A stretch of 64,000 nt of DNA, taken from Candidatus Latescibacterota bacterium. Its GTDB lineage: Bacteria > Latescibacterota > UBA2968 > UBA8231. Numbering within the stretch: position 1 is the first letter of the stretch; each line of letters begins with the position of its first letter. A program made the position numbers and the translations under genes. The stretch covers positions 260,542 to 324,541 of the forward strand of contig OZ220089.1 of assembly GCA_964291625.2 (NCBI GenBank), given 5' to 3'. Below are positions 37,284 to 60,439 of the stretch, in pieces. The notes under the pieces were generated by a model. It was given only the letters and a program-made list of their open reading frames with translations, made no database searches and was not told the origin of the DNA.

Positions 37284-37300
37284 CCCCTTCTCCCCGCTCT

Positions 37301-41958: not shown

Positions 41959-44460
41959 CAGTAGGCCACGTGCACGAGGCGGACCCGGCTGGTGCGCCGG
42001 CCTCCGGTGTCCACGCCCACCCCGACGCGGGCGGCATAGATGCCCGGCGCCACGAGGGCGCCCGAGTCGTCGCGGCCGTCCCAGGGGAAGTCATGGCGGC
42101 CGCTGGCCTGGGGCGGCACCCGGGTCAGGTCGCGCACGAGCCGGCCGGAGAGGTCGTGGATGCCCACCGTGATCCGCGGCGGCCCCCGCACCTGGAAGAC
42201 CTGGAAGGAGAGGACGGCCTCGTCGTTGACGCCGTCGCCGTTGGGGGTCAGCACCGGCGGCGTCACCTCCAGCGGCGCCAGCAGGCGCCCGGCCTCCAGG
42301 TCGGAGACGACCACCAGGGACTGGCTCTCCACCAGGTCGGTGGCGTCTCCCTCGCTGGCGATCTGCAGGATCCCGGGCTTCCGAGGAGCGGGACAGCTCG
42401 ACCCGGAAGGTGGTGCCGCTGAGGAAGACCTGGGTGCGGATGCGGGCCGCATAGACCGAGCGGCCCGAGGTGACCGGCCCGGGAAAGCGGACGTCCACGC
42501 CTCCCTCCACCGGAGCGGCGGAGGCGGTGGCCAGCAGGTCGACGGCGTTCCCCGTGCGCAGGCGGGCCTCGGAGCCGGCGTGCAGCGACACCAGTGTCAT
42601 GGGCGCGCTCGAGGAGGAGCGGATCCCCATGCGGTCGAAGCCCGGGTCGCCCGCCCGGAAGCGGGGCCGCATGTAGATGGTGAACTCCTGATCGACCCCC
42701 GCGGGCACCTCGCTGGTGGGCCAGATCTCGGCCCACACCTGGTCCACCAGGGGCTCGGCGAGACCGATCCGCAGGCCGCGTATGGCGGCGCGCCTCAGGG
42801 GGTTGATGGTCAACAGGCGCACCTGGGCCAACGCGTAGCGCCGCGGACTCGGCGAGCGGAAGGGCTCCGGCGACTCGCGGTAGACCTCGCTCCAGCTGCT
42901 CCACTTCTGCCCGGGCACGTAGAGCGTGTCCACGGGACCCCGGTTCGACTCGCGGGCCCTCTCCCAGCGCTCCTGCTCGATGGGGAAACCGGCGGCGTCG
43001 AGGTATCTCAGCTCCTGGCGCAGGTCGTCTCCCGAGCGCGTGCGGACCTCGATGCGGGTCTCCCGCGGCGCCTCCCCCTCCCACGACAGGGAGCTGAACA
43101 TGCGCGACCCCGGCAGGGCGATCAGGGGGGAGGTGAGGACCACCTCCGAGACGAAGCCCTCGCCGAAGGCCAGCATCTCGGCGAGCTGGCCGCTCTCCTG
43201 CTCGGTGCCGAGCAGCGCCAGGGCCCGCAGCTGCACGTGGCGCACCTCCTGCAGCGGGAAGCTCTCCTCCAGCTGGTGGAAGCGGTCGCGGTTCAGGCGC
43301 TCGTCCAGCTCGTTCCAGACGCGCTCCCCGTTGGGGTCGATGGAGCCGTCGGAGAGCAGCACCTGGTAGGCCCGAAGCGGCTGCTCGGGGGTGACCAGGC
43401 GCACCCGGTCGAGCCAGTACTTGGCGCCCAGGTCGACCTCCAGCTGGTTGCGCCGGCGCACCTGGTCATACGGCTTGATGGGGAACCACGTGTAGAAGAA
43501 CCCGTCCGTCGAGATGGTGCGCACCAGGTCGCCGATGGCCCGGGTCTGGAGGTTGATGAGCCGCTGCGTGTTGAGGACCACGTTCTCTCCGGGGGTGATC
43601 ACCTCCAGCTCCGCCACCCGGGGGCGCTCGCGGCGGAAGTGGCGCACCGGCCCCCGTTCGGCCTCGGGCAGGTCGCTCCAGGTCGCCTCGGAGACCGGGA
43701 TCTCCCGGCCCGCCACCGTGGTGCGGTGGTAGGCCACCGCGCCCCGGTCCTCCGGCGGCAGGGCCGCGTGCTCCTCCGGCGAGACCTCGCGGCCTCGGTC
43801 CCCGTCCGAGCCGAGGGCCTCCAGACGGACGAACTGCACCACCTGGCCCGTCACCCCCGGAGGCAGGGGGCGCTGCGGCTTGATGTCGAAGACGAAGTGC
43901 CGCCCGTCCTTGTTGGGCAGGACCACCTGGCCGGCGCGGAAGTACTCCAGGTCGTCGTTGAGGCGGCCGAGCCCGTTGGAGAGGCGTACGCGGAACTTCA
44001 GGAACGGATCGCCCTCGCCCTCGGGCGCGAACCGCACCACCACCTGCTCGGCGATCACGGCGCGGCCGAGGTCGATCTCGACGAACCAGTCCTCCACATC
44101 GTCGGCCGGGTCGGGCTCCCACCAGGTGAGGGGGTCCCCGTCGTGCACCAGGGATCCCGTCTCCGCGCCGCTGCCGATGGCGTGGACGCCGCCCGTGACC
44201 GTGTCGGAGTCGGCGAATATGGCCATGTACTCGTGGGCATCGAGGGCGGCGTTGCCCCGCCGCTGCAGCCCCCGGGGGGTCACGGTGCCGTCAGGCCCCA
44301 GCTCCAGGGCGCCCTCGGGCAGCTGCCACGCCGACCAGTGAGCGGCGCGGTCGACGACGACCTCCGTCGGCCTCAGCCGGTACCCCTCCTGGGGGGCTGC
44401 GGCGGTGCCCAGGAGCACGAGAGCGGCCGCGAGCCAGCTGGGCGGGCGGGGACGGACCAT
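41958..44460 (-). pseudogene. family-A protein (F5/8-type-C-like + FlgD-Ig-like tail) interrupted by a frameshift near 42371-42390
   Basis: ORF 42091..44460 carries the signal peptide, discoidin-like domain (DGDPLTWWEPDPADDVEDWFVEIDLGRAV) and body, up to ...TTFRVELSRSS. It then degenerates into Arg/Gly/Pro junk. The expected tail (ILQIASEGDATDL...VLTPNGDGVNDEAVLSF...IHDLSGRLV...WDGRDDSGALVAPGIYAARV...VHVAY) is in another frame, in ORF 41958..42452. The total span of 2503 nt is not a multiple of 3. Confidence 0.6.
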
Positions 44461-46272
44461 TCAGTAGGCCAGTTCCACCACGCCCCGGCGCCGGCCGGTG
44501 CCGCCGTCGGCATGCACGCGCAGCTCGTAGAGGTAGAGGCCGGGAGGGACCCGGCGGCCGCTGCTGTCGAGACCGTCCCAGGCGGCGGTGAGGGTGCCGG
44601 CGCCGTGCTCCGCCTCCCAGGCCCGGACCAGGGGGCGGCCGTCGACAGCGAAGATGTCGAGGGTCAGCCTCGCCGGTTCCATGAGCTTGAGGAGGGTGAA
44701 GGTCAGCTCGAGCCGGTCGTTGACGCCGTCGGCGTTCGGGGTCGTCACGGGGCTGGCGGCCCTCAGGTTGGAGATCAGGGACAGGCGCCCCGCTGCCGCC
44801 CCGTGGCGGACGACCAGACCGCCTCCGGGCTCGCCGTCGATGTCGGCGGGGCGCGCGACCTGGTAGGCCACCCTCGATCCCCCCTCCTCGGTGCGCCGGT
44901 CGATGGCCTGCACCTCGAACCTCGTGCGCTCGTGGAAGACCGTGGCCGTGAACTCCACCTGCAGGAAGCTGCCGTCCTGCACCACCCGGCGGGGCAGGTT
45001 GACGGTGAAGCCGGTGCCCGGCTCGACGTCGATGAAGGGCAGGACCTCCAGGTCGTCGACGCGGATGCTTTGGACCTCGCCGATCTCGGCCGCCGTCCTT
45101 ACCTGCAACTGCCGGAAACCGGTGTCCCGGTGAGACTCGGAGCCGGTGCGGTCCAGGTGGACCTGAAGGGAGAGGGTGAAGGGGCTCTCCACCCCGGCCC
45201 GCGCCTCCAGGGGCGAGATCTCGGCCGCCAGGTCCCGGGCGACCGGTGGATGGATGTACTCGAACCGCAGCTCCCGCAGGCCGGCGCCGGGTTCCGTCAG
45301 GGTGATCTGGAACTGCAGGTAGCGTTTCAGGGGTGGCGAGCGCACGAGTCCGTCGGTGACCGGCTCCCATGGGCTCCAGGCCGGATTGGGCTCGACCGGC
45401 CCCCTGTCCTCCGGCGGGGCGTTCTCCCAGCCCGCCTTGCTGTACTGGATCACGTCGCCGCCCTGGATCAGGTAGTAGAGGAGGGGGCTCCGGTCCGGCC
45501 CGGTGCGGGTGCGCACCACCACGGGCGCGGTGGAGATGTCGCCGCCCTCGTAGAGCACGCGTCCCCACACGGGCTCCGGCCGGCCGGCCCGCAGCGGCTG
45601 GGACTCGTACTCCCCCACGGGGACCGTGCCGTCCGAGTAGACCTCCAGCTCGGCGATCTCCCAGGCGCGGTCGACCTGCGGCTCCAGGGCCAGCAGGCGC
45701 GCCTCCACGCTGGGGAAGCGCTTGTCCACCACGGGGGAGGTGTTCTCGTTGGGGGCCTTGAAGAACATCAGCCGGCGGGAGTCGGCCAGGGGGTCGAGAC
45801 TCTGCGCCGCGGACAGGGTGAACTCCTGCAGGAACCGGTTGCGGTTGCGGAAGTCGAGGCGGGGGAAGAACCGGACGCGGTTCATACGGAAGGTGGCCCC
45901 CAGGTCGACCCACAACGTGGAGGACCGCTCCACGCCCTCCTGCAGGTCGGGATCGAAGAAGGTGGTCGGATCGCCGTCGAAGAGCGCTTCGCCGCCGGGC
46001 AGCGGCGTGAACCCCCTCTCCGGGTCCGAGTACAGCACCCGTCCGCCGCGCTCGCCGAGGGTGGCGGTCAGGTTCGCGTTGGCCTCCACGTCCCACATCC
46101 AGATGCCGTCCCCGGTGACGGCGACGTACCGCGAGGAGGACTCCGCCCCCCGCCAGGAGAGCTCGGGGCCGACGGAGACGTAGCGGACCTCGCCGGCCGA
46201 CGGTCGGCCCAGCGACAGGAGGGCGGCCGCTACCGCCAGCGGCCGCATCATCGCCAGGTGAGTTGCGGCCAT
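44461..46272 (-). CDS. family-A secreted protein: F5/8-type-C-like N-domain + FlgD-Ig-like C-terminal domain (603 aa)
   Basis: ATG at 46272 within ORF 44461..46317 (MAATHLAMMRPLAVAAALLSLG). N-domain: LFDGDPTTFFDPDLQEGVERSSTLWVDLGATFRMNRVRFFPR. Tail: VTTPNADGVNDRLELTFTLL...LDIFAVDGRPLV...WDGLDSSGRRVPPGLYLYELRV...GVVELAY. Confidence 0.75.
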   Translation of the reverse strand: MAATHLAMMRPLAVAAALLSLGRPSAGEVRYVSVGPELSWRGAESSSRYVAVTGDGIWMWDVEANANLTATLGERGGRVLYSDPERGFTPLPGGEALFDGDPTTFFDPDLQEGVERSSTLWVDLGATFRMNRVRFFPRLDFRNRNRFLQEFTLSAAQSLDPLADSRRLMFFKAPNENTSPVVDKRFPSVEARLLALEPQVDRAWEIAELEVYSDGTVPVGEYESQPLRAGRPEPVWGRVLYEGGDISTAPVVVRTRTGPDRSPLLYYLIQGGDVIQYSKAGWENAPPEDRGPVEPNPAWSPWEPVTDGLVRSPPLKRYLQFQITLTEPGAGLRELRFEYIHPPVARDLAAEISPLEARAGVESPFTLSLQVHLDRTGSESHRDTGFRQLQVRTAAEIGEVQSIRVDDLEVLPFIDVEPGTGFTVNLPRRVVQDGSFLQVEFTATVFHERTRFEVQAIDRRTEEGGSRVAYQVARPADIDGEPGGGLVVRHGAAAGRLSLISNLRAASPVTTPNADGVNDRLELTFTLLKLMEPARLTLDIFAVDGRPLVRAWEAEHGAGTLTAAWDGLDSSGRRVPPGLYLYELRVHADGGTGRRRGVVELAY

Positions 46273-46273
46273 C

Positions 46274-47233
46274 TCAGAACGGCGCCCAGTTCGGGTGCAG
46301 GTCGTCGTACGGATCATCGGTCACCCGCTCCTCGGCGCCGCCCTCGACGGGGACGATGTAGATGTCGTAGCGCGTCTCCACGTCGACCAGCCGGGCGAAG
46401 GCGATGCGGGTGCCGTCGGGAGACCAGGTGGGAGTCTCCTCCCAGGCCTCGCCGAAGGTCAGCTGCCGGGCGCCGCTGCCGTCGGCGGCCATGACCCAGA
46501 TGTGGCTGATGTCGAAATCGTCCGGATCCAGCGCGACATAGGCGATCCAGGCCCCGTCGGGCGACCACGAAGGTTGTCCGGCGTACTGGCCCTCCGGCGA
46601 GAGCCGCTCCGTGCCGCCGCCGGCCGGGTCCATGATGGTGATACCGTCCTCGCCGTCGTAGGCGATCGAGGCGCCGTCGGGCGACCACGCGGGCGACCGG
46701 CCCCACGGGGCCAGGGGCTCGTGGGTGAGCCTCTCCACGCCGCTGCCGTCGGCGTTCATGACGAAGACCTGCGGCCCCCTCCCTCCCCCGCCGCTGCGCT
46801 CGAAGGCGATGCGCTGGCCGTCGGGCGACCAGGCGGGAGCCGAGTCGTAGGCGTCGCCGCGCGTCAGGTTCACCGGGTTCCCGCCGTCGGCGTCCATGAC
46901 GTAGATCTCGAGGTCCCCGTCGCGGATCGAGCTGAAGGCCACCTTCGTCCCGTCCGGCGACCGGGCCGGCTGCTCGCCCCGGCGGGTGAAGTAGAGGGTT
47001 TCCAGGGAGTCGGGGAAGGTGCCGTCCGACTTCGGCAGACCGATCAGGCCCGAGGACAGGTTCACCACCTCGCCGCTCTCCAGGTCCAGGGAGTGCACCT
47101 CCAGGTCGCGCAGGTATTCGCTCTCGAGGCGCCGGTTCGAGGTGAACAGGAGCTGAGTAGCGTAGGCCGACCCGTCCGGCAGGACCACCTGCGCCGTGTC
47201 CTCCGGCTCCGGTGCCGTGAACTCCACGGTCAC
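46274..47233 (-). CDS. PD40 (TolB-like) beta-propeller protein; corresponds to the C-terminal two thirds of the LRR-PD40 paralogs (array copy 1, split)
   Basis: ORF 46274..47233, with GTG at 47233 overlapping the stop of 47230..47778 as GTGA. Repeats: PARSPDGTKVAFSS..DGDLEIYVMDADG, PAWSPDGQRIAFE, PAWSPDGASIAY, PSWSPDGAWIAY, PTWSPDGTRIAFA. In copies 2 and 3 the same sequence is fused in-frame to the LRR part. Confidence 0.65.
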   Translation of the reverse strand: MTVEFTAPEPEDTAQVVLPDGSAYATQLLFTSNRRLESEYLRDLEVHSLDLESGEVVNLSSGLIGLPKSDGTFPDSLETLYFTRRGEQPARSPDGTKVAFSSIRDGDLEIYVMDADGGNPVNLTRGDAYDSAPAWSPDGQRIAFERSGGGGRGPQVFVMNADGSGVERLTHEPLAPWGRSPAWSPDGASIAYDGEDGITIMDPAGGGTERLSPEGQYAGQPSWSPDGAWIAYVALDPDDFDISHIWVMAADGSGARQLTFGEAWEETPTWSPDGTRIAFARLVDVETRYDIYIVPVEGGAEERVTDDPYDDLHPNWAPF

Positions 47234-47778
47234 CCCCCCTCGCGGAGGGCGGCGGCCTGGGCCCGGGCCGCCTCGCTCAGCGGGTTGCCGGTGAGATCGA
47301 CGCTCTGCAGGCTGTCCAGACCCGCCAGGGCCGACACCTCCGCCACCTCGTTGTCGGCCAGCAAGAGCACCTGCAGGCCCTTCAGCGACTCCAGGGGCGT
47401 GACCTCCTCGACCCGGTTGCTCCCCAGGTCGAGGTAGCGCAGCCGCGTCAGCCCCGACAGCGGCGACAGGTCGCGGATCTCGTTGCCGTACAGGTCCAGG
47501 GCCTCCAGCCGGCTCAGCTGCTCGATGCCGTCCAGGTTCGCGATCCCCCGCTCCTTGGCCGTCAGCGAGACCAGCCCGGCCGCGTCGCCTGTCTCCCCCG
47601 CGGCTTCGGTCACCGCCGACTGCAGGGCCGAGTCCGCGAAGACCAGGGCGACGCCCGTGCCGCCCCCGGGGCCGGGGCCGACGGGCGGGTCGGGCTCGGA
47701 GCCGCAGCCGGCCAGCATCAGGACGGCCACCAGGGCCGCGAGCTTCCAGGTCATCACCATCGCAGGCGCTCCGGACAT
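47230..47778 (-). CDS. leucine-rich-repeat lipoprotein; corresponds to the N-terminal third of the LRR-PD40 paralogs (array copy 1, split)
   Basis: ATG at 47778 within ORF 47230..47856 (MSGAPAMVMTWKLAALVAVLMLAGCGS lipobox). 22-residue LRRs (LEALDLYGNEIRDLSPLSGLTRLRYLDLGSNRVEEVTPLESLKGLQVLLLADNEVAEVSALAGLDSLQSVDLTGNPL). It ends at a TGA created by a C7/G7 homopolymer. Confidence 0.65.
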   Translation of the reverse strand: MSGAPAMVMTWKLAALVAVLMLAGCGSEPDPPVGPGPGGGTGVALVFADSALQSAVTEAAGETGDAAGLVSLTAKERGIANLDGIEQLSRLEALDLYGNEIRDLSPLSGLTRLRYLDLGSNRVEEVTPLESLKGLQVLLLADNEVAEVSALAGLDSLQSVDLTGNPLSEAARAQAAALREGG

Positions 47779-47779
47779 C

Positions 47780-49309
47780 TCAGAACGGCGTCCAGTTGGG
47801 GTCCATGTCATCGTGGGGATCGTCGGTGACCCGCTCCTCGGCACCGCCCTCGACATCGACGATGTAGATGTCGTAGCGGATATCCTGCTCCGACTGCCGC
47901 GCGAAGGCGATCCGGGTGCCGTCGGGGGACCACGTCGGGTTGCTGTCCCAGGTCTCGGCGAAGGTCAGCTGCCGGGCGCCGCTGCCGTCGGCGCCCATGA
48001 CCCAGACGTGGCTGAAGTCCCTGGCCGTGTCCGCCTTGGTGTAGGCGATCCGTTCACCGTCCGGCGACCACGTCGGGCGCGTCCCCCCGAGGCCAGCCTG
48101 CGAGATGAGATGCAGGGATCCGCTGCCGAGCTCGAGGAGGTGGATTCCCCAGTCGGTCCCCATGGCGGAGACGCAGGCGATGGACGCGCCGTCGGGCGAC
48201 CACGCCGGCGAGCCGGCCCAGGGGGCCAGGGGTTCGTACGTGAGCTGCTCCACGCCGCTGCCGTCGGCGTTCATGACGAAGATGTGGGGCACCCCGCCGT
48301 CGCGTTCCGACACGAAGGCGATGCGCCGCCCGTCGGGCGACCAGGCGGGACCCGAGTCGAACGCGTCGTGGCGGGTGAGGTTCACCGGATCGCCTCCGTC
48401 CGCGTCCATGACATAGATCTCCATGTCGCCGTCCCGGAAGGAGGCGAAGACCACCCTCGTCCCGTCGGGCGACCGGGCCGGCTCCTCGCTGGTCCGCGAG
48501 GCGTAGTGCCGTTCCAGCGAGTCGGGAACCGAGCCGTTGGAAAAGGGGACGGCGGCCAGGACCGAGCACAGGTTCACGACCTCGCCGGTCTCCAGGTCCA
48601 GGGAATGCACCTCGCGGCTGGACAGGTAGCCGCCCTCGAGCCGCCGATTCGAGGAGAACAGGAGCACCGAGGCGCCCAGGGGAGGGGCCGGACCCTCCGG
48701 CGGGATCACCTCCACGCTGTCCTCCGCCTCCGGCACGGCGACCTCCACGGTCACGCCGCGCTCGCGGAAGGCGGCGGCCTGGGCCTGGGCCGCCTCGCTC
48801 AGCGGGTTGCCGGTGAGATCGACGCTCTGCAGGCTGTCCAGACCCGCCAGGGCCGACACCTCCGTCACCTCGTTGTCGGCCAGGAGCAGCACCTGCAGGC
48901 TCCTCAGCGACTCCAGGGGCGTGACCTCCTCGACCCGGTTGCTCCCCAGGTCGAGGTAGCGCAGCCGCGTCAGCCCCGACAGCGGCGACAGATCGCGGAT
49001 CTCGTTGCCGTACAGGTCCAGGGCCTCCAGTCGCGTCAGCTGCTCGATGCCGCCCAGGTCGGCGATCCCCCGCTCCTTGGCGGTCAGGGAGACCAGCCCG
49101 GCCGCGTCACCCGTCCCGGCCCCGACGGCGGCCTCCTCCACCGCCGCCTGCAGCGCCGAGTCCGCGAAGACCAGGGCGACGCCCGTGCCGCCCCCGGGGT
49201 CGGGGTCGGGCCCGATGGGGCCGTCCGGGTCCGAGCCGCAGCCGGCCAGGGCCAGGGCGGCCGCCAGGGCCGTGAGCTTCCGGGTCATCGTCGAGTGCGC
49301 TCCCGACAT
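47780..49309 (-). CDS. LRR + PD40 beta-propeller lipoprotein (array copy 2, 509 aa)
   Basis: ATG at 49309 within ORF 47780..49342 (MSGAHSTMTRKLTALAAALALAGCGS). Pro-rich linker, 5-6 LRRs, then PD40 repeats. Ends DDPHDDMDPNWTPF. Confidence 0.85.
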   Translation of the reverse strand: MSGAHSTMTRKLTALAAALALAGCGSDPDGPIGPDPDPGGGTGVALVFADSALQAAVEEAAVGAGTGDAAGLVSLTAKERGIADLGGIEQLTRLEALDLYGNEIRDLSPLSGLTRLRYLDLGSNRVEEVTPLESLRSLQVLLLADNEVTEVSALAGLDSLQSVDLTGNPLSEAAQAQAAAFRERGVTVEVAVPEAEDSVEVIPPEGPAPPLGASVLLFSSNRRLEGGYLSSREVHSLDLETGEVVNLCSVLAAVPFSNGSVPDSLERHYASRTSEEPARSPDGTRVVFASFRDGDMEIYVMDADGGDPVNLTRHDAFDSGPAWSPDGRRIAFVSERDGGVPHIFVMNADGSGVEQLTYEPLAPWAGSPAWSPDGASIACVSAMGTDWGIHLLELGSGSLHLISQAGLGGTRPTWSPDGERIAYTKADTARDFSHVWVMGADGSGARQLTFAETWDSNPTWSPDGTRIAFARQSEQDIRYDIYIVDVEGGAEERVTDDPHDDMDPNWTPF

Positions 49310-49310
49310 C

Positions 49311-50840
49311 TCAGAACGGCGTCCAGTTGGGGTGCATGTCATCGTGCGGATCGTCGGTCACCCGCTCCACGTCGCCGCCCTCCGCGGGGACGATGTAGAT
49401 GTCGTAGCGGGTCTCCTGCTCCGTCTGCCGCGCGAAGGCGATGCGGCGGCCGTCGGGGGACCACGTGGGGGTCCGGTCCCAGACCTCGGCAGAGGTCAGC
49501 TGCCTGGCGCCGCCGCCGTCGGCATCCATGACCCAGATGTGGCTGGAGTCGGTGGTCGTGTCGACGACGGTAAAGGCGATCCGGGCGCCGTCGGGCGACC
49601 ACGACGACTCCCCGCCCTCCGGGGAGAGAAGGCGCATCACTCCGCTGGCCAAGTCCAGCACGTAGATCCCTTGCACGCCTCCCTGGGACGAGAGACAGGC
49701 GATCGACGAGCCGTCGGGGGACCACGCGGGCCAGAAAACCCACGAGGCCTGGGGCTCGTCGGTGAGCTGCTCCACCCCGCCGCCGTCGGCGTCCATGACG
49801 AAGAGCTGGCCCAGCCGTCCTCCGTCGTTGCGGTTCGACACGAAGGCGATGCGCCCTCCGTCGGGCGACCAGGCCGGATACTGGTCATTCGCCGGGTGGC
49901 GCGTCAGGTTCACCGGGTCGCCGGCGGCGGCGTCCTGGACGTAGATCTCCTGGTCCCTGTCCCGGCGCGAGGTGAAGGCCACCCGGGTGCCGTCCGGCGA
50001 CCGGGCCGGTTCCTCGCTGCTTCGCGGGTGGTAGGCGGTCAGGGAGTCGGGCACGGTGCCGTCGGCCAGGGGGAGAACGGCCAGGGCCGGGGACAGGTTG
50101 ACCACCTCGCCGGTCTCCAGGTCCAGGGAGTGGACCTCGAGGCCGGAAAGGTAGGAACCCTTCGTGCGCCGGTTGGAGGAGAACAACAACTGCGAACCGC
50201 GCAGAGCACGGCCAGGCTCCCCGGGTGGTTCCTCGGGCGGGACCACCTCGACGCTGTCCTCCGGCTCCGGCTCCGGCGCGGTCAGCTCCACGGTCACGCC
50301 GCGCTCGCGCAGGGCGGCGGCCTGGACCCGGGCCGCCTCGCTCAGCGGGTTGCCCGTGAGATCCAGGCTCTGGAGGCTGTCCAGACCGGCGAGGGCGGAG
50401 ATCTCCGTCACCCCGTTGTCGGCCAGCAGCAGCACCCGCAGGCCCTTCAGCGACTCCAGGGGCGAGACCTCCTCGACCCGGTTGCTCCCCAGGTCGAGGT
50501 AGCGCAGCCGCGTCAGCCCCGACAGCGGCGACAGGTCGCGGATCTCGTTGCCGTACAGGTCCAGGGCCTCCAGCCGGGTCAGCTGCTCGATGCCGTCCAG
50601 GTTCGCGATCCCCCGCTCCTTGGCCGTCAGGGTGACCAGCCCGGCCGCGTCGATGGTCCCGGCCGCGACCTCGGCTTCGTCCACGGCCGCCTGCAGCGCC
50701 GAGTCCGCGAAGACCAGGGCGGCGCCCGCGCCACTCCCCGGGTCGGGATCGGGCCCGATGGGCGGGTCCGGCTCCGAGCCGCAGCCGGCCAGGGCGCACA
50801 GGACCAGGGCTCGCGTTGATGCCGCCGTCATGGACCTCAT
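49311..50840 (-). CDS. LRR + PD40 beta-propeller lipoprotein (array copy 3, 509 aa)
   Basis: Last 509 codons of ORF 49311..56636, ATG at 50840 (MRSMTAASTRALVLCALAGCGS). Same architecture as copy 2. Ends DDPHDDMHPNWTPF. Confidence 0.85.
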   Translation of the reverse strand: MRSMTAASTRALVLCALAGCGSEPDPPIGPDPDPGSGAGAALVFADSALQAAVDEAEVAAGTIDAAGLVTLTAKERGIANLDGIEQLTRLEALDLYGNEIRDLSPLSGLTRLRYLDLGSNRVEEVSPLESLKGLRVLLLADNGVTEISALAGLDSLQSLDLTGNPLSEAARVQAAALRERGVTVELTAPEPEPEDSVEVVPPEEPPGEPGRALRGSQLLFSSNRRTKGSYLSGLEVHSLDLETGEVVNLSPALAVLPLADGTVPDSLTAYHPRSSEEPARSPDGTRVAFTSRRDRDQEIYVQDAAAGDPVNLTRHPANDQYPAWSPDGGRIAFVSNRNDGGRLGQLFVMDADGGGVEQLTDEPQASWVFWPAWSPDGSSIACLSSQGGVQGIYVLDLASGVMRLLSPEGGESSWSPDGARIAFTVVDTTTDSSHIWVMDADGGGARQLTSAEVWDRTPTWSPDGRRIAFARQTEQETRYDIYIVPAEGGDVERVTDDPHDDMHPNWTPF

Positions 50841-52373
50841 CAGAAGGGCGCCCAGCACGGGTCCCTGTCGACGCCCGGATCGTCGGTGAGCTGCTCGCCG
50901 GCGCCCCCCTCCGCGGGGATGACGTAGAGGTCGTAGGCAATCCCTTCCGCCCGGTCCTCCCGCGCCAGGACGATGCGGGCGCCGTCGGGAGACCACCTGG
51001 GGGGGCCGCGCCGGAAGAACCGCCCCACGGTCAGCTGGCGGGCCTCCCCGCCCCGGGCGGGGATCTTCCACACCTGGCTCCTCGAATTCGACGGTCTCCA
51101 CGTAGGCGATCCAGCGGCCGTCCGGGGACCACGATGGCCCCCACGCCAGTCCGTCGTCGTCGGTGAGGAGCCGGGCCTCCCGGCTGGACAGGTCCAGGAC
51201 GAAGATCCCTGAAAAGCCGTGGCCGTCGTACTTGTTGAAGGCGATCGACGAGCCGTCCGGCGACCACGCCGGATGCTCGGCGCTTTGGCTCAGGGGATCT
51301 GAGGTCACCTGCTCCACGCCGCTGCCGGCGGCGTCCATGACGAAGATGTCGGTGTTGTTGCGCCAGGGCCGGATCTCGACGTCGCCGTTGCGGTCGGAGA
51401 CGAAGGCGATGCGCTCCCCGTCGGGCGACCAGGCGGGATTCGCGTCATAGGCCTGGTGAAGGGTGAGGTTCTCCGGCCGGCCGCCGTCGGCGTCCATGGC
51501 GTAGATCTCGTAGTTGCCGAAGTCCCGATACGAGGTGAAGGCGATCCTTCTCCCGTCGGGGGACTGGGCCGGCTCCACCCCGTGGCGCGGCGGCGGCCGC
51601 CCGCTGGAATCGTCCCCGGACAGGGGCGCCTCGGCCAGGGCTTCCGCCAAGTTGACGACCTCGCCAGTCCCCGAGTCCAGGGAATGCACCTCGAGGTCCC
51701 AGTCGTCCCCGGTCCGGCGGCTCGAGACGAAGACGATCGGCAGCTCCCCCAGGACGACCCCGCCCCCGCCCGGATCCTCCGGCTCCTCGGGCTCCGTGAT
51801 GTCCACGGTCACGCCCCGTTCCCGCAGCGCCGGCACCTGGGCGTCGACGGCGTCCCCGGTCAACGGGTTGCCCGTGAGGTCGACGCTGTTCAGGCTGTCG
51901 AGACCCGCCAGGGCGGAGATCTCCCTCACCTCGTTGTCGGCCAGCACCAGCACCTGAAGGCTCTTCAGCGACGCCAGGGGGGTCACCTCCTCCACCCGGT
52001 TGTTCCCGAGGTCGAGGTAGCGCAACCGTTTGAGCCCCGCCAGCGGCGACAGGTCCAGGATCTCGTTGCCGTACAGGTCCAGGGCCTCCAGTCGCTCCAG
52101 CTGCCCGATGGCGCCCAGGTCGGCGATACCCCGCTCCCTGGCGTTCAGGGAGACCAGCTCCTCCGCGCTTCCGGCAGCGGCCGCCGCGGCCTCTTCCACC
52201 GCCGCCTGCAGGGCCGAGTCGGCGAATACCAGGGCGACGCCGGTGGGGCCGACGGGATCGGGACCGGGACCGACGGCCGGGTCCGGCTCCGAGCCGCAGC
52301 CGGCCAGGACCCAGACGCAGACCGCCATCCGGGGGGTGGTCTCCACGATCCTCCGCAAGGTCGGAAAGTCCAT
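50840..52373 (-). pseudogene. LRR + PD40 lipoprotein (array copy 4, most divergent) interrupted by a frameshift near 51065-51085
   Basis: The frame of ORF 49311..56636 encodes MDFPTLRRIVETTPRMAVCVWVLAGCGS..., the LRRs and the PD40 repeats up to ...RWIAYVETVEFEEPG, then junk. The last propeller blade and conserved C-terminus (VWKIPARGGEARQLT...RWSPDGARIVLA...DDPGVDRDPCWAPF) are in ORF 50840..51073. The 1534-nt span is not a multiple of 3. An alternative ATG lies at 52328. Confidence 0.6.
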
Positions 52374-52408
52374 GATTATTAAGGGGTTATGGACAATTGT
52401 GGACTTAG

Positions 52409-54496
52409 TCAAGCGTCTTCGCAGCAGAAGACGCCCACGGACCAGGGCTCGATCCGAACCTCGAAGGCCCCATCCTCGACCGCCACTTCGCCGCCCGTGA
52501 GCAGGTCCTCCGCGCTCCGGATTGGCCCGGGGCGCAACCTCGCCTTTGCGGAGGACCGCTCGAGGTTGAAGGCGAAGACCAGCCGCCCGCCGCGCCGGGA
52601 CCTGCGGAGGGTGGTGACCAGGGGGTCGCCGGCCACCGCCACGGGCGGCTCGATGCCGGCCTCCTCCACGAGGCCGAGGACCAGCGGCGGATGGCCGACA
52701 TCCCCGAATCCCGCCGACAGGGTCAGGCCGTACCAGGTGAAGCGTCCGTCGCCGCTGCGCACGGCCACCACCTGGCTGCCGAGCCGGGCGATCGCGGTGG
52801 TGTCCCCTTGCGGCTCGAGCACGGCGTACCCGCAGGGGGACGAGACGGCCACCGACCCGTACGGTGTCCGCAACCGGTTCTCCCCTCTCCGGATGTCGTG
52901 GGGCGTCACCGCCGAGAAGTCCTCCACGCGGACGCCGAAGCGCTCGGCGAAACCCTCGGGAGGGGCCTCGCTCGACAGGCCGTCGGCCTGGTAGAGTCCG
53001 AAGCTGCCCTCGGCGACCAGCCGTGTCCCAGGACTCTCCTCCAGGGTCCGATGGATGCGGTCCCGTGCCTCTGCGCCCATGAGGGCGAGGTTGGGCAGGA
53101 AGAGGAGGCGGTAGCCCGACCAGTCCATGCGCGGCGACAGGATGTCGGCGGGGATGCCGTGACGCCAGAGGGTCCGGTAGACCCCCCGGAGATCGGCGTT
53201 GAAGCGCTCGGTCTCGCCGTTGAGGCCGAAGAGCTCCTGGGACTCCGGGTGGTAGACGATGCCCACCTCCGCCCGGGGGCACCCGAGGGGCAGGTGGTCC
53301 TTCATCCTCTCGATGCCGTCCACGGCGGCGGCCACCGCTCGCAGACGCGCCGTGGGCCGTCCGTCGAGGGCGGCGAGGTTGTACCCGGGGGACTCGAAGC
53401 TGAGGTACTCGGGGCGGTACTGCCAGAACATGCATCCCGCGGCGCCGCCGGCGAGGGTCATCCACAACAGGGTGGTCAACTCGCGCGGATCGGACTGCTT
53501 CTTCCAGGTCACCCCGCCGCGAGACATGCCGGCGTAGATCTCCTCGTTCCACCAGCGGCCGTTCACGCCCTGGCTGCGCGAGAGATCGAAGCTGAAGGCC
53601 CGATCGGCGAGCGGGTACGGGTCCTCCGAGGTGAGCAGGTTGTTCGAGGACATGGACATGCCCCAGCTGTCCACGTGTCGGGCGCACTCGTCGTCCCAGG
53701 GGCGCGGCGTGGAGGCGGCGTGGGCCCGGAGCTCGTGGAGGGGGTCGATCCTCCGGGCCTCGGCCACCATCCATCGCAGGTGGTCCACGAGGTTCAGGCG
53801 GTGGAAGCGCAGGTAGAGCAGCATCTCCACCACGTTGTGGTTCGACCGCGGCGGCTCCACGTCCTCCCAGTCCCGGTAGCGGCGCAGGAGCCGGACGTTC
53901 AGTTCCTCGAGGGTGAAGCGCTCGCGCAGCCAGGCCTTGTAACGAGCCCGGGTATGGCCGCAGTAGCAGGGCAGGCCGTCCCCGTGACGGGGCCAGGACG
54001 GGCTCACGCCGTCCCAGAGCCCCCACACCAGAAGGTTGGGCCGGTCCTTGTAGCGGGCGACCACGTGCCGAAGGAGAGCTCCGCCGCGCTCGCGCCAGGC
54101 CGGGTGGTCGCAGCAGTGGACCATCGCCCCCTGGGGTGTGGCGGGGCTCGCGTCTCCCAGGCTCGGCTCGCCCCGGTGGCTGACGGTCCTCATGTCCGGG
54201 TGCTCCCGGAGCAGCCACTCGGGACAGGCGCCGTGAGTGGCGAGAGTGATGTCCATCCACACCCAGAGACCGTGCTTCGCCGCCAGATCGAAGAGCCGGT
54301 CGAAGTCGTCGAGCTGGTAGACGCCCGGAGCCGGCTCCATCCAGTTCCAGTAGCTGAAGCTGCGCACGACCCGGAGACCGGCCTGCCGGATCCGCGCGAA
54401 ATCCCCGTCCCACAGACCGGTCCCCGGGACCGGCGCACGGTAGTACTCCACTCCCACGGGGAAGGGTGTGTCCGGATGGAGCCTGAATGCGGGCAT
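52409..54496 (-). CDS. glycoside hydrolase family 42-like (beta-galactosidase-type) protein
   Basis: ORF 52409..54496. N-terminal GH42 TIM-barrel pattern (GVEYYRAPVP...WDGDFARIRQAGLRVVR..YWNWMEPAPGVYQLDDFDRLFDLAAKHGLWVWMDI...CPEWL). Central trimerisation-domain pattern (YRLLFLPNLALMGAEARDRIHRTLEE). No signal peptide. Confidence 0.8.
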   Translation of the reverse strand: MPAFRLHPDTPFPVGVEYYRAPVPGTGLWDGDFARIRQAGLRVVRSFSYWNWMEPAPGVYQLDDFDRLFDLAAKHGLWVWMDITLATHGACPEWLLREHPDMRTVSHRGEPSLGDASPATPQGAMVHCCDHPAWRERGGALLRHVVARYKDRPNLLVWGLWDGVSPSWPRHGDGLPCYCGHTRARYKAWLRERFTLEELNVRLLRRYRDWEDVEPPRSNHNVVEMLLYLRFHRLNLVDHLRWMVAEARRIDPLHELRAHAASTPRPWDDECARHVDSWGMSMSSNNLLTSEDPYPLADRAFSFDLSRSQGVNGRWWNEEIYAGMSRGGVTWKKQSDPRELTTLLWMTLAGGAAGCMFWQYRPEYLSFESPGYNLAALDGRPTARLRAVAAAVDGIERMKDHLPLGCPRAEVGIVYHPESQELFGLNGETERFNADLRGVYRTLWRHGIPADILSPRMDWSGYRLLFLPNLALMGAEARDRIHRTLEESPGTRLVAEGSFGLYQADGLSSEAPPEGFAERFGVRVEDFSAVTPHDIRRGENRLRTPYGSVAVSSPCGYAVLEPQGDTTAIARLGSQVVAVRSGDGRFTWYGLTLSAGFGDVGHPPLVLGLVEEAGIEPPVAVAGDPLVTTLRRSRRGGRLVFAFNLERSSAKARLRPGPIRSAEDLLTGGEVAVEDGAFEVRIEPWSVGVFCCEDA

Positions 54497-54557
54497 TGAG
54501 GAAACCTCCCGGCGCCACTAAGCTCTTTCGCCCACCTTGGAGAAACGCGGCTCGTCG

Positions 54558-56384
54558 ATGAACATCCTGGGGATCTCCGCCTACTACCACGACAGCGCCG
54601 CCTGCCTCGTGCGGGACGGCGAGATCGTGGCCGCGGCCCAGGAGGAGCGCTTCACCCGCAGGAAGCACGACCACGAGTTCCCGGCCAAGGCCGTCGACTT
54701 CTGCCTCGACTACGGCGGCCTCGATCCCGGAAACCTCGATCTGGTCGCCTTCTACGACAAACCGCTCCTCAAGTTCGACCGCCTCCTCGAGACCTGGATC
54801 AGCTTCGCCCCGAGGGGCTTCAAGCTCTTTCTCATGGGCATGCCCTTGTGGTTGAGGCAGAAGCTGCACACCCCCCGGGAACTCGACCGCGGCCTGCGCG
54901 GCGGCTACGGAGGGCGCTACCTCTTCCCCTCCCACCACGAGTCGCACGCGGCCAGCGCCTTCTACCCCTCCCCCTTCCAGGAGGCCGCCATCGTCACCCT
55001 GGACGGCGTCGGCGAGTGGGCCACGGGAACCATCGCCAGGGGCCGGGACCACGAGATCGAGATGCTCAGGGAGATGCGCTTCCCCCACTCCCTCGGCCTG
55101 CTCTACTCGGCCTTCACCTACTTCACCGGTTTCCGGGTCAACAGCGGCGAGTACAAGCTCATGGGCCTGGCGCCGTACGGCGAGCCCGTCTACCGCGACC
55201 TCATCGTCGAGGAGATGCTCGACATCAAGGAGGACGGCTCCTTCCGCATGGACATGTCCTACTTCGGGTTCTGCCATACCGATGTCATGACCACGCCGAA
55301 GATGGACCGGCTCTTCGGAGGGCCGCCGCGGCAGCCGGAGGGCGAGATCACCCGGCGCGAGATGGACCTGGCCGCCTCGATCCAGGCGGTGACCGAGGAG
55401 ATCGTGCTGAAGATCGCGGGCCACGCCCACGAGCTGACGGGCGCCCGCCACCTGGTGATGGCCGGCGGCGTCGCCCTCAACTGCGTCGCCAACGGCCGCC
55501 TGCTGCGCGAGGGACCCTTCGAGGACCTGTGGGTCCAGCCCGCCGCCGGAGACGCGGGGGGCGCCCTCGGAGCGGCCCTGTTCACCTGGCACCAGCTCCT
55601 GGGCAACCCCCGAAGGGCGGCGCCCCGGGACAGTCAGGGAGGGTCCCTGCTCGGCCCCCGCTTCGACGACGACGAGATCCGCCGGGACCTGGACGCGGCC
55701 GGAGCAGTGTACCGTCGCTGCGAGGAAGAGACCGAGCTGATCGACCGCATCGCGGAGCTGGTGGCGCAGGAGAAGGTGGTGGGGCACTTTGCCGGCCGCG
55801 CCGAGTTCGGTCCGCGGGCCCTCGGCAGCCGCTCCATCCTCGGCGACGCGCGCTCCGCCGAGATGCAGTCGGTGATGAACCTCAAGATCAAGTTCCGCGA
55901 GTCCTTCCGGCCCTTCGCCCCCGCCGTCCTGCGCGAGGACGTGGGCGAGTTCTTCGAGATGCCGCCCGGGTACGACAGTCCCTACATGCTCGTCGTGGCG
56001 CCGGTCCGGGAGGAGCATCGGCTGCCTTCCGGCTCGACTCCCGGGGGGCTGGAACAGCGCCACGAGAGGCGCTCCACGGTCCCGGCCATCACCCACGTCG
56101 ACTACTCCGCCCGCGTGCAGACCGTCGACGCCGGCCACCACCCCCGGTTCCGCAGGATCGTCGAGCGCTTCAAGGAGCGGACGGGAACCCCGGTCCTGAT
56201 CAACACCAGCTTCAACGTCCGCGGCGAGCCGATGGTGAACACCCCCGCCGACGCCTACCGCTGCTTCATGGCCACCGGCATGGACGCCCTGGTGCTGGAG
56301 AGCTGCCTCCTTCTGAAGGAGGACCAGCCCGAGGCCCGGGCCTTCGACGCCTCGGCGTACCTCTCCGAGTTCGCCCTGGACTGA
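54558..56384 (+). CDS. NodU/CmcH-family carbamoyltransferase
   Basis: ATG at 54558 within ORF 54537..56384. Motifs: MNILGISAYYHDSAACLVRDGEIVAAAQEERFTRRKHD, HHESHAASAF, VTLDGVGEW, LMGLAPYGEP, VMAGGVALNCVANG, and the C-terminal NTSFNVRGEPMV. Confidence 0.9.
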   Translation: MNILGISAYYHDSAACLVRDGEIVAAAQEERFTRRKHDHEFPAKAVDFCLDYGGLDPGNLDLVAFYDKPLLKFDRLLETWISFAPRGFKLFLMGMPLWLRQKLHTPRELDRGLRGGYGGRYLFPSHHESHAASAFYPSPFQEAAIVTLDGVGEWATGTIARGRDHEIEMLREMRFPHSLGLLYSAFTYFTGFRVNSGEYKLMGLAPYGEPVYRDLIVEEMLDIKEDGSFRMDMSYFGFCHTDVMTTPKMDRLFGGPPRQPEGEITRREMDLAASIQAVTEEIVLKIAGHAHELTGARHLVMAGGVALNCVANGRLLREGPFEDLWVQPAAGDAGGALGAALFTWHQLLGNPRRAAPRDSQGGSLLGPRFDDDEIRRDLDAAGAVYRRCEEETELIDRIAELVAQEKVVGHFAGRAEFGPRALGSRSILGDARSAEMQSVMNLKIKFRESFRPFAPAVLREDVGEFFEMPPGYDSPYMLVVAPVREEHRLPSGSTPGGLEQRHERRSTVPAITHVDYSARVQTVDAGHHPRFRRIVERFKERTGTPVLINTSFNVRGEPMVNTPADAYRCFMATGMDALVLESCLLLKEDQPEARAFDASAYLSEFALD

Positions 56385-58750: not shown

Positions 58751-60439
58751 CTAGTTCCCCGACGGGGAATTGTCAACCAGGCGGACGACGAGGATGTTCC
58801 TCTCCGGCCCCGCCGCGGAACGGGCCTGGCGCCGGAAGGACCGTTCGTCGGTCCGGAAATCGGGATAGGCGGCGGCCGTGGTCACGCCCCGCGCCAGCAG
58901 CTCGCTCCACAGCGGTTCCACGCGCTTCACGAAGCCCGCCGCCACCACGAAGTAGTCGGCCCCTTCCGCCGCCAGCGAGTCGAGCCGGGAGGCCTCGAAG
59001 AGATCCGGGGTGATCTGCCAGCCCTTGCGGTGGCAGTAGTAGAGCAGGGTCGGGCTTCGGGTGCGGAACGGCCCGCCCCGGTCCTCGTCGATGTCGCCGG
59101 CCACAAGCCGCGCGCCGGCCGGCATCCGCGCGTCGAGGACGCGTCCGGCGAGCTCGCAGGTGCGGTAGTAGTCGTAGATCCTGTTCCCGGGGCGGTAGTA
59201 GTCCCCCAGCTTCCACAGGCCGCCGGCCGCCACCGCCGCCAGGGACAGGGCCACCAGCGACCGCGCCCGGAGCGACCCCGGCCGGAGCCGCCGCAGCTGC
59301 CGGCCCACGACGCCGGACAGGCACGCGCCTCCCGGCTCCCACAGGGCAGCCAGGGGCGCGGCGGCGAAGACCGCCGCCGGCAGGGCGAAGGGCAGCTGGT
59401 AGTAGTGGAGCCGGCGGTTGCCCTCGGGGATGAGGAGGACGTACAGCAGCAGGCCGCCGAGCCAGGCGTAGAGGGGCCACACCTCTCGCCCTTGCCGGGG
59501 GCCGCCGTCACCGCGGGGCCACAGGCCGGCGAGTCCGGCCGCCGCCAGGAGAACACCCATGGGCGTCAGCACGGCCTCGACGAACCGGCCCGCCATGAGG
59601 CGGTAGAAGCCGCCCTGCAGGAGCAGGTCGTGGCTCCACTTGTCGTAGCCCCGGCGGCCCCAGATGCCGAAGGTGAGCCCCGTCTCCTCGAAGAGGCCGG
59701 CGGCGTGCACGTGCCAGGCCGCAGCCGGCGCCACCGCCACCAGCAGATAGAGCCACAGCGACCCGCGGCGCACGAAGGAAGGCCCCCAGCGGCCGAGGGC
59801 CATGGCCACGAGGGGGAATCCGAGGTACAGGGTTGGGATCTTGAGGGCGAAGCAGAGGCCGGCGATCCCGGCGGCGGCCAGCAGCCAGGCCGTCCCCTCC
59901 CGGCAGGCGCGGCCGAAGGCGCTCAGGGCGGCGGCGCTCAGCAGCAGCATGAGCGCCTCGGGCATGAAGGCGCGGCCGAAGAACAGGCTCAGGGGCAGCA
60001 TCAGGTAGATGGCCACGGCCAGGCGCGCCCCCGCGGCGCTCCCGAGCCAGGCGCGGGCCAGGGAGTACAGGGGGACGGCCGCGGCGGTGGAGAAGAGGGC
60101 CGCCAGCGACCGCCCCATCCACTCGTGGGCGCCGCCCGCCAGGGAGTAGAGGCAGGCCACCAGGAAGGGGAACAGGGGCAGGTTCATCTCCACGTACCCC
60201 GGCGTGTTGCCGCGCCAGTCCACGCGGGGATGGAAGAGGGTGAATCCCTCTTCGTGGAAGTTGCGGGCGATGGCCGCCGTGTCGGCCTGGCGCCACGCCT
60301 GGTGGTCGATGAGGGGCGCCGTCACCTCCACGAGGCGGAGGCCGAGGCCGGCCGCCAGGAGCAGGAGAAGCCAGCGGTCGGACAGCAGGCGGCCGGGTCC
60401 CGCGTCGGCCGCCGGAGAGCTCTTCAGAAGGCTCGCCAA
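58751..60439 (-). CDS. ArnT/PMT-like family 39 glycosyltransferase (polytopic membrane protein)
   Basis: ORF 58751..60439, with TTG as the only canonical start. About 10-12 TM helices. First-loop pattern TAPLIDHQAWRQADTAAIARNF typical of GT39/ArnT-like enzymes. C-terminal soluble domain. Confidence 0.75.
   Translation of the reverse strand: MASLLKSSPAADAGPGRLLSDRWLLLLLAAGLGLRLVEVTAPLIDHQAWRQADTAAIARNFHEEGFTLFHPRVDWRGNTPGYVEMNLPLFPFLVACLYSLAGGAHEWMGRSLAALFSTAAAVPLYSLARAWLGSAAGARLAVAIYLMLPLSLFFGRAFMPEALMLLLSAAALSAFGRACREGTAWLLAAAGIAGLCFALKIPTLYLGFPLVAMALGRWGPSFVRRGSLWLYLLVAVAPAAAWHVHAAGLFEETGLTFGIWGRRGYDKWSHDLLLQGGFYRLMAGRFVEAVLTPMGVLLAAAGLAGLWPRGDGGPRQGREVWPLYAWLGGLLLYVLLIPEGNRRLHYYQLPFALPAAVFAAAPLAALWEPGGACLSGVVGRQLRRLRPGSLRARSLVALSLAAVAAGGLWKLGDYYRPGNRIYDYYRTCELAGRVLDARMPAGARLVAGDIDEDRGGPFRTRSPTLLYYCHRKGWQITPDLFEASRLDSLAAEGADYFVVAAGFVKRVEPLWSELLARGVTTAAAYPDFRTDERSFRRQARSAAGPERNILVVRLVDNSPSGN

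Follow-up and report, generated by a model that had tools for sequence, protein, structure and literature searches.

Evidence for gene conversion restricted to the leucine-rich repeat block in a tandem array of predicted bacterial lipoproteins with diverging beta-propellers

Concerted evolution is known among paralogous bacterial surface proteins, for instance babA/babB of Helicobacter and ligA/ligB of Leptospira (these two share an identical N-terminal half), in which non-reciprocal exchange of the RecA type between envelope paralogues leads to one shared and one divergent part. Here we describe an array of four tandem genes for predicted lipoproteins, located on the minus strand at 46274-52373 of a 64,000-nt window (the whole stretch of DNA analysed, contig OZ220089.1, G000:C1:260542-324541), in which every gene codes for a leucine-rich repeat (LRR) block followed by a TolB-like beta-propeller. 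A described system of the same kind is the pair of Toll-like receptors TLR1 and TLR6, in which one block has been homogenised by conversions that took place independently in nine mammals, the remainder tracking orthology (Kruithof et al. 2007, PMC2077338). The rationale proposed there is that the converted block co-evolves with shared partners while the other domains diversify (PMC2077338). For the bacterial locus we consider it highly probable that the array is real and that its LRR block is overwritten by gene conversion while the propellers evolve apart; the products would act as bipartite binders of the envelope.

The source genome (G000) has 5.9 Mb in two contigs and a G+C content of about 71%. 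The four copies, called c1 to c4 by position, are arranged head to tail in units of 1506-1534 nt, close to the 1.53 kb of the original prediction, and are transcribed in the order c4, c3, c2, c1. Measured from stop to stop, c1 occupies 46274-47779 (1506 nt), c2 47780-49310 (1531 nt) and c3 49311-50839 (1529 nt), and c4 covers 50840-52373 from its ATG to its stop (1534 nt). The coding sequences of c2 (47780-49309, with an alternative start at 49288) and c3 (49311-50840) are intact and each exactly 1530 nt long, as had been predicted. The LRR and the propeller lie at 50720-50286 and 50189-49314 in c3, at 49177-48743 and 48664-47783 in c2, and at 47649-47222 and 47152-46277 in c1, the copy transcribed last (46274-47778). 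In c4, the first to be transcribed, the lipobox Cys codon is at 52298, followed by a tether (52298-52236), the LRR (52235-51801), a linker (51800-51738) and the propeller (51737-50843), which is frameshifted near 51077. Spacing between the copies is minimal: the stop of c4 and the ATG of c3 overlap by one base (TGATG), the first in-frame ATG of c2 comes one base after the c3 stop, and the gaps are of 0-1 nt, or 22 nt if the alternative start codons downstream are used. Tandem Repeats Finder gave no match at the array, the period of which is above the 500-nt limit of the program.

G000 holds eight full-length family members: the four of the array, a tandem pair (p5-p6) at C1:3.987 Mb and two singletons (p7 and p8). 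Four of the nine other genomes of the same genus that were examined (G002, G004, G006 and G007) also carry the family, with 7-9 matching loci per genome, and in all four the array is syntenic, between a gene for a glycoside hydrolase family 42 (GH42) beta-galactosidase and the first of several genes for large secreted proteins. It has three copies in G006, four in G000 and in G007 (the first of the latter a pseudogene) and five in G002, and is fragmented in G004. The remaining five genomes are much more distant and have neither the GH42 orthologue nor the family. Lower-case suffixes (G002_a and so on) designate the slot within the array.

The degree of similarity between copies depends on the region of the unit that is compared. 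In pairwise comparisons among c1, c2 and c3 the LRR block is 91.5-92.8% identical (92-95% in a 300-nt core) and the propeller 76-77%, which bears out the prediction that the propellers are the more diverged part; uniform divergence was not found. The 15 or so mismatches that had been counted by eye between 47278-47596 and 48789-49108 turned out to be exactly 15, with the two ranges about 11 nt out of register (the true offset between c1 and c2 is 1522). Uninterrupted identical runs between these ranges had been put at about 90-125 nt; the longest in c1-c2 are of 88 and 65 nt, that in c1-c3 is of 112 nt (ending at 50466 in c3) and that in c2-c3 of 69 nt. What did not stand was the description of copy 4 as diverged throughout, since c4 displays the same gradient against c1-c3 (82-84% in the LRR, 66-67% in the propeller) plus a mosaic 5' tract of its own.

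To examine the two parts separately we have used a codon alignment of 31 family members, in which N placeholders restored the frame of frameshifted copies, for the purpose of the analysis only. The propeller tree is organised by position, into orthologue clades with bootstrap values of 95-100 that unite c4 with G002_a (bootstrap 100), c3 with G002_b and G007_b, c2 with G002_c, G007_c and G006_b, and c1 with G002_e and G006_c. The propeller types having positional orthologues in the relatives, their duplications are older than the separation of the five related species in which the locus is found. The LRR tree instead groups neighbours within a genome, namely G007_c with G007_d (bootstrap 100), G006_a with G006_b (99) and G002_d with G002_e (76), and places c1, c2 and c3 of G000 together with G002_b; the grouping of LRR neighbours thus recurs independently in three related genomes. 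In approximately unbiased (AU) tests each part of the gene rejected the topology of the other, the LRR data that of the propeller with a log-likelihood difference of 250 (p 1.6e-49) and the propeller data that of the LRR with a difference of 2132. A tree constrained to nothing more than the four orthologue groups was also rejected by the LRR data (difference of 163), and in both cases the AU p for the LRR was below 1e-48.

Silent sites tell the same story. Within the c1-c3 group synonymous divergence (dS) reaches 0.38-0.46 in the propeller but only 0.13-0.16 in the LRR, an LRR/propeller ratio of 0.29-0.36 (0.44 in the tandem pair p5-p6), whereas the orthologue pairs of G000 and G002 have no deficit in the LRR (0.11-0.23, against 0.10-0.20 in the propeller). 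Pairs that include the distant singleton p8 give a ratio of 0.68-1.18, and the pairs c4-p5, c4-p6 and c4-p7 one of 0.87-1.22. Silent sites of the LRR are therefore not slow by nature, and the deficit is specific to linked paralogues. These figures make it very improbable that constraint alone, in the form of stronger purifying selection or codon constraint on the LRR block and no recombination at all, has generated the pattern. Constraint would fit the LRR-rich identity of an unlinked pair such as c2-p5 (86.7% in the LRR, 68.3% in the propeller), the low nonsynonymous divergence (dN) in the LRR and the many LRR residues that are invariant across 50 homologues. It does not fit LRRs that are closer between paralogues (93.0% for c1-c2) than between orthologues (90.6% for c1-G002_e, 89.6% for c2-G002_c) in genes whose propellers behave in the opposite way (76% between paralogues, 92-95% between orthologues), nor the rejection of orthology by the LRR data. 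The tree of third codon positions also argues against it, as some neighbours of the same genome still come out together there (G007_c and G007_d, bootstrap 95).

A way to locate the exchanged segments is to score each G000 copy at the sites that distinguish a paralogue from the G002 orthologue. In this site-pattern scan the informative sites change from paralogue-like to orthologue-like some 440-550 nt after the Cys codon, that is, at the boundary between the LRR and the linker. MaxChi-type and Sawyer-type tests were carried out with implementations of our own in place of the RDP and GENECONV programs. The former gave permutation values of p<=0.0033 in seven of seven triplets of query, paralogue and orthologue, with all four copies used as query. 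In c2 the converted tract extends over 48782..49219, within which 35 sites match c1 and 20 match G002_c, compared with 16 and 196 outside (chi-square 88.9, p<=0.0033). The corresponding tract of c1 is at 47295..47662 (paralogue/orthologue sites 29/12 inside and 16/204 outside, p<=0.0033) and that of c3 at 50444..50627 (19/1 inside and 35/212 outside, p<=0.0033). The mosaic 5' tract of c4, at 52076..52244 (20/5 inside and 33/318 outside, p<=0.0033), resembles G002_a, its orthologue, less than it resembles other array copies or G006_a and G006_b. In the Sawyer-type permutation of the longest run, c1-c2 was significant with all polymorphic sites (p=0.001) and with third codon positions (p=0.0002), and c1-c3 was marginal (p=0.03). 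A nearest-neighbour scan in 120-nt windows resolved the 5' third further: c1 has 99% identity with c3 over alignment nt 181-360, 95-98% with c2 over 241-480 and 95% with G002_d over 61-180, c2 matches G002_b at 96% in its opening 120 nt, and c4 is nearest to G006_a and G006_b over nt 61-360. So fine a mosaic implies what would be many short events, in several lineages. Taken together, the tree incongruence, the AU tests, the dS deficit limited to the LRR of neighbouring paralogues and the tracts of the site-pattern scan uphold the original prediction of concerted evolution of the LRR alongside diversification of the propeller.

Base composition at third codon positions (GC3) was also examined along the units. 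It is 0.97-0.98 in the LRRs of c1-c3, 0.93 in that of c4 and 0.93-0.95 in the propellers, a pattern that hints at GC-biased gene conversion, though the small counts do not allow a claim.

In this assembly frameshifts affect two of the four copies. In c1 there is a 1-nt deletion at a run of seven G on the coding strand (C7 on the plus strand, 47233..47239), by which the protein reads REGG* instead of RERGVTVE; the orthologues have CGCGGC at this site, without a G run. The break falls at the junction of LRR and linker, and splits the gene into an LRR open reading frame (47230-47856) and a propeller open reading frame (46274-47233) with a GTGA stop/start overlap. In c4 a 2-nt deletion near 51077, before the last blades, changes GAGGAGAG to GAGGAG relative to G002, G006 and G007. 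The first-slot copy of G007 is a pseudogene too (L036, G007:C1, 6250-7886), with two frameshifts, one after the lipobox and one in blade 2, and its decay is independent of the break in c4. Frame-breaking indels in the window number three (47234, 51077 and 42380). The last of these, an insertion of one nucleotide by comparison with G002 and G006, lies in a gene downstream of the array (42091-44460, minus strand) and leaves about 95 final codons of a discoidin-domain protein out of frame as an Arg/Pro/Gly-rich tail. Homopolymer indels were assessed genome-wide by a test of GC3 phase, blastn gaps against relatives being noisy inside paralogue arrays. At runs of seven G or C the coding phase is kept in 92% of the evaluable cases and changes in 26 of 332 (7.8%), a mild excess over the 3.8% at random positions and the 4.7-5.1% at runs of 5-6; it would amount to about a dozen homopolymer-linked frameshifts or errors in the genome. 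The break in c1 may be a real mutation or a sequencing error; the 2-nt deletion of c4 is less typical of homopolymer error.

The indels and the mild enrichment of phase changes are also what an artefact of assembly or polishing would bring with it, the array having been collapsed, expanded or made chimeric, or its LRRs falsely homogenised by reads mapping to several copies. We give this little credence: two thirds of each unit are unique (66-77% identity), no identical run exceeds 112 nt, and the converted blocks are 91-99% and not 100% identical, on a contig of 4.79 Mb. Furthermore, independent assemblies of other species show the propeller types in the same order (the four types of G000 correspond to a, b, c and e of G002), and in all of these LRRs are homogenised between neighbours, with different partner pairs. 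Collapse or expansion of the array is therefore unlikely, and the near-identical repeats, which had been flagged as an assembly hazard, are a small one.

The broken copies could equally bring to mind programmed variation, with frameshifted genes serving as silent donor cassettes in the style of pilE/pilS, vlsE or msp2 and the G7 run as an on/off switch by slipped-strand mispairing. One of the two breaks is indeed at a homopolymer, the first copy in G007 is broken by different mutations and recombination between copies is frequent. But every copy retains its own start codon and lipobox, the exchanged block is the conserved LRR, so that exchange homogenises and does not diversify, the orthologues are without the G run, and the five copies of G002 are all intact; we hold such a system to be most doubtful. 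The least credible explanation is a very recent duplication of whole units, the propellers being then driven apart by positive selection and the LRR keeping its original similarity: the propeller dN/dS between paralogues is fairly high (0.47-0.66) and copy number does vary between species, but a positional orthologue with 86-95% nucleotide identity exists for every propeller type in G002, G006 or G007, and the propeller dS between paralogues is three times that of the LRR, which selection on amino acids cannot produce.

Several observations weigh against LRR-restricted conversion among envelope binders, or reduce what can be attributed to it. Compared with c1-c3, the unlinked paralogues p5-p7 have identities of 85-87% in the LRR and 64-68% in the propeller, and a baseline excess of the LRR over the propeller of about 10-20 points is thus found even where the genes are not linked. 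For this reason the raw identity gradient overstates conversion; a large part of it is ordinary protein-level constraint or older exchange, and the signal of conversion lies above that baseline. The Sawyer-type run test was not significant for the pair c2-c3. Events in the G002 lineage may account for some of the paralogue-like sites, and the tracts are not polarised as to direction, number or timing. Two of the four copies may be pseudogenes, and copy number and both frameshifts rest on a single assembly plus synteny. The binding partners of the proteins and their location, at the periplasmic face or at the cell surface, are putative only.

As to the course of conversion, the first 440-550 nt after the Cys codon, comprising tether and LRR, have been rewritten time and again by short non-reciprocal tracts from other copies, mostly neighbours. 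In this block paralogues of one genome resemble each other at least as closely as orthologues do. On their 3' side the tracts stop where the conserved RERGVTVE motif ends and the linker follows. Given a linker of variable length and propellers that are 66-77% identical, there would be too little homology beyond this point for the heteroduplex to extend. Homologous recombination is expected to abort at such low identity, owing to the RecA and mismatch-repair barriers. Selection against tracts that erase a specialised propeller probably reinforces the limit. Columns that are fixed within orthologue groups but differ between them make up 16% of the propeller and 3% of the LRR, the former figure being consistent with specialised propellers.

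The shared LRR block may also provide the homology that drives unequal crossing-over. The additional copy d of G002 has no counterpart in G000 and combines a propeller of another type with an LRR near-identical to that of its neighbour e. The first slot, next to the GH42 gene, is occupied in G000 and G002 by a propeller of the a type and in G006 and G004 by one of the p7 type; in G007 it holds a p5-like pseudogene. Copy numbers of three to five and three first-slot types in five species suggest unequal or ectopic recombination through the shared 5' block, with replacement of cassettes.

All the copies have the same domain layout: a hydrophobic signal peptide that ends in a lipobox (LAGC), a tether rich in Pro, Gly and Asp, an internalin-type LRR, an acidic linker and a TolB-like PD40 propeller. 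Pfam families LRR_4/LRR_8 (E 1e-18 to 1e-20, LRR_4 in three stretches) and PD40 (E 1e-30 to 1e-38, four stretches) were found in all four. The lipobox reads LAGC in the four copies and in most relatives, with LTGC, LSGC or LAAC in a few; across 50 homologues C17 is invariant and L12, A13, L14 and G16 are nearly so. With a lipobox of the form [LVI][ASTVI][GAS]C, the proteins are predicted to be lipoproteins processed by signal peptidase II, in a host that is presumably diderm. The tether that follows the Cys is disordered and some 20-25 residues long, and the LRR consists of four to five repeats of 22 residues with the pattern LxxLxLxxNxI.

An AlphaFold2 model of c2, built on an alignment of 50 sequences, has a mean predicted local distance difference test score (pLDDT) of 83. 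In it residues 1-35 are disordered, residues ~40-180 form a confident LRR solenoid, residues 185-200 a disordered linker and residues 205-502 a confident all-beta domain (pLDDT mostly 85-96 over 205-500). The best Foldseek matches were TolB propellers (E 1e-17, ~300 columns, root-mean-square deviation 3-3.8 A, 18-20% identity, target-normalised template modelling score ~0.6), followed by the propellers of S9 peptidases. A sequence profile search of the PDB retrieved LRRs of Roco and internalin proteins (E 5e-64 to 1e-44) as well as TolB, residues 221-407 of which aligned with residues 263-458 of the query (E 2e-34); among the best 60 chains listed, no solved chain matched both LRR and propeller. 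The model and these matches support a PD40/TolB-like fold for the propeller, probably with six blades by analogy with TolB. The original description of an internalin-like LRR and a TolB-like propeller behind a lipobox was accordingly correct.

Membership in the TolB or the internalin family was considered and rejected. A TolB orthologue does not agree with matches confined to the propeller, with an LRR standing where the N-terminal domain of TolB would be, with eight paralogues, or with neighbours that are a GH42 enzyme and large FlgD-Ig/discoidin proteins and not tol-pal genes. In the case of the internalins, Pfam identifies LRR and PD40-type families only, without the Ig-like inter-repeat, LPXTG or GW, and the anchor is a lipobox.

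A glimpse of the possible function comes from the conservation of single residues. Five residues of the LRR (D91, R110, D113, S155 and T159) are invariant or nearly so across the 50 homologues (mean identity 51%), and by our own assignment, from the LxxLxLxxN register, they would lie on the exposed concave face of the strands. Near-invariant residues on this face point to one common partner of the LRR, and the lineage-fixed differences of the propellers point to different ligands. From these features we infer that the proteins are putative envelope-anchored bipartite binders. A more ambitious possibility, which we put forward as speculation and consider rather unlikely, is a modular repertoire of envelope receptors, in which an LRR maintained by conversion would dock one shared partner, possibly one of the large secreted proteins whose genes come next downstream in the same strand block, ligand recognition would fall to a diversified set of propellers and the LRR would double as a handle for cassette swapping. 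If this were true, conversion would be the organising principle of the repertoire and not a mere by-product of proximity.

The immediate surroundings of the array are consistent with joint transcription. An AT-rich spacer of 35 nt (52374-52408) separates the stop of the GH42 gene from the ATG of c4 and contains a promoter-like site on the minus strand (52375..52403), the only sigma-70-type match in 44000-55000 (0.1 expected from shuffles), from which the c4 ATG would be almost leaderless. The spacer is near-identical in G002 and mostly kept in G007; the G006 extract covers its last ~16 nt only. A terminator scan of the array found no terminator-like site between the copies, and the four appear to form one operon, of three to five copies across species. 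Downstream of the array, on the same strand, are five large genes (34665-46317), in which the only Pfam matches are an F5/8 type C (discoidin) domain in one and FlgD_ig/CHU_C, a C-terminal domain like those of type IX secretion, in another. Their products may be partners of the LRR-propeller proteins. A 400-aa protein with a PD40 propeller and without LRR is encoded 8 kb upstream of the array (60427-61626, minus strand).

The family was also looked for outside the genus. Among 168 genomes of the phylum, a full-length match was present in at least six, the five carriers and one genome of another genus, a lower bound given that few candidates were scored per genome. A search of 5.8 billion protein clusters at 90% identity returned 7955 matches below 1e-5; the best 120 of these all had E values of 1e-150 or lower, nearly all contained both LRR and PD40 Pfam domains, and all came from metagenomes or metagenome-assembled genomes (MAGs). 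The few named clusters are "LRR domain-containing protein" from Gemmatimonadota/Gemmatimonadaceae MAGs. The architecture, which had not been recognised when the locus was first read, is uncharacterised indeed and has a generic name only, but it is not unique, with well over 100 clusters at 90% identity. At 50% identity, three or four of the best 150 clusters were full-length matches (~500-660 aa), and a longer form of 640-670 aa is also found among the database clusters. In the search of representative proteins, giant LRR or PD40 proteins with many repeats predominated, and it is a poor means of counting the exact architecture. A search of the literature on LRR lipoproteins of Gemmatimonadetes found nothing relevant. 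One database member from ENA (P0131, contig 17770) has 999 aa, about twice the normal length, and may be two adjacent copies fused by read-through or frameshift. On the second contig of G000 (G000:C2:953000-962000) there is another tandem array, of about eight LRR proteins of a different family, with an ordinary signal peptide, another C-terminal domain that ends in ...SWGAIK... and a GC3 of 0.82-0.85.

The locus provides a controlled bacterial case of gene conversion in a single domain, in which positional orthologues in four relatives and an unlinked paralogue allow conversion to be separated from constraint. It also draws attention to an uncharacterised, lineage-specific expansion of LRR-plus-propeller lipoproteins in one sub-lineage of the Gemmatimonadaceae, in a phylum whose envelope biology is poorly known. 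If the LRR served for docking throughout the family and the propellers as variable binders, the family would be a tractable model of how one interface is kept constant as another diversifies. For annotation, orthology in this family should be assigned on the basis of the propeller, never of the LRR, and two of the four array copies read as broken in the G000 assembly.

Among known systems, the resemblance to TolB resides in the C-terminal PD40 beta-propeller; unlike TolB, the array proteins have an LRR in place of the N-terminal alpha/beta domain, are predicted to be lipidated and not soluble, share only 18-20% identity with it and come as eight paralogues per genome. With the internalins InlA/InlB/InlH of Listeria and the LRR of the Chlorobium Roco protein they have in common the 22-residue LxxLxLxxNxI repeats, but in contrast to internalins they have only four to five of them and a predicted lipid anchor, and lack the Pfam Ig-like inter-repeat, LPXTG and GW. 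The cassettes of pilE/pilS or vlsE differ by their promoterless or truncated silent set, whereas all copies of the array have a start codon and a lipobox. The paralogues babA/babB and ligA/ligB belong to host-associated pathogens and have known roles as adhesins, while the array family is one of environmental Gemmatimonadaceae. As in TLR1/TLR6, we find tandem paralogues in which a contiguous LRR-containing block is closer between paralogues than between orthologues (PMC2077338); unlike TLR1/TLR6, this is a bacterial array of three to five copies apparently in one operon, the converted block is at the 5' end and the part that diversifies is a beta-propeller and not the LRRs. The process, domain-restricted concerted evolution, is a known one; the protein family in which it is found here is unstudied and lineage-specific.

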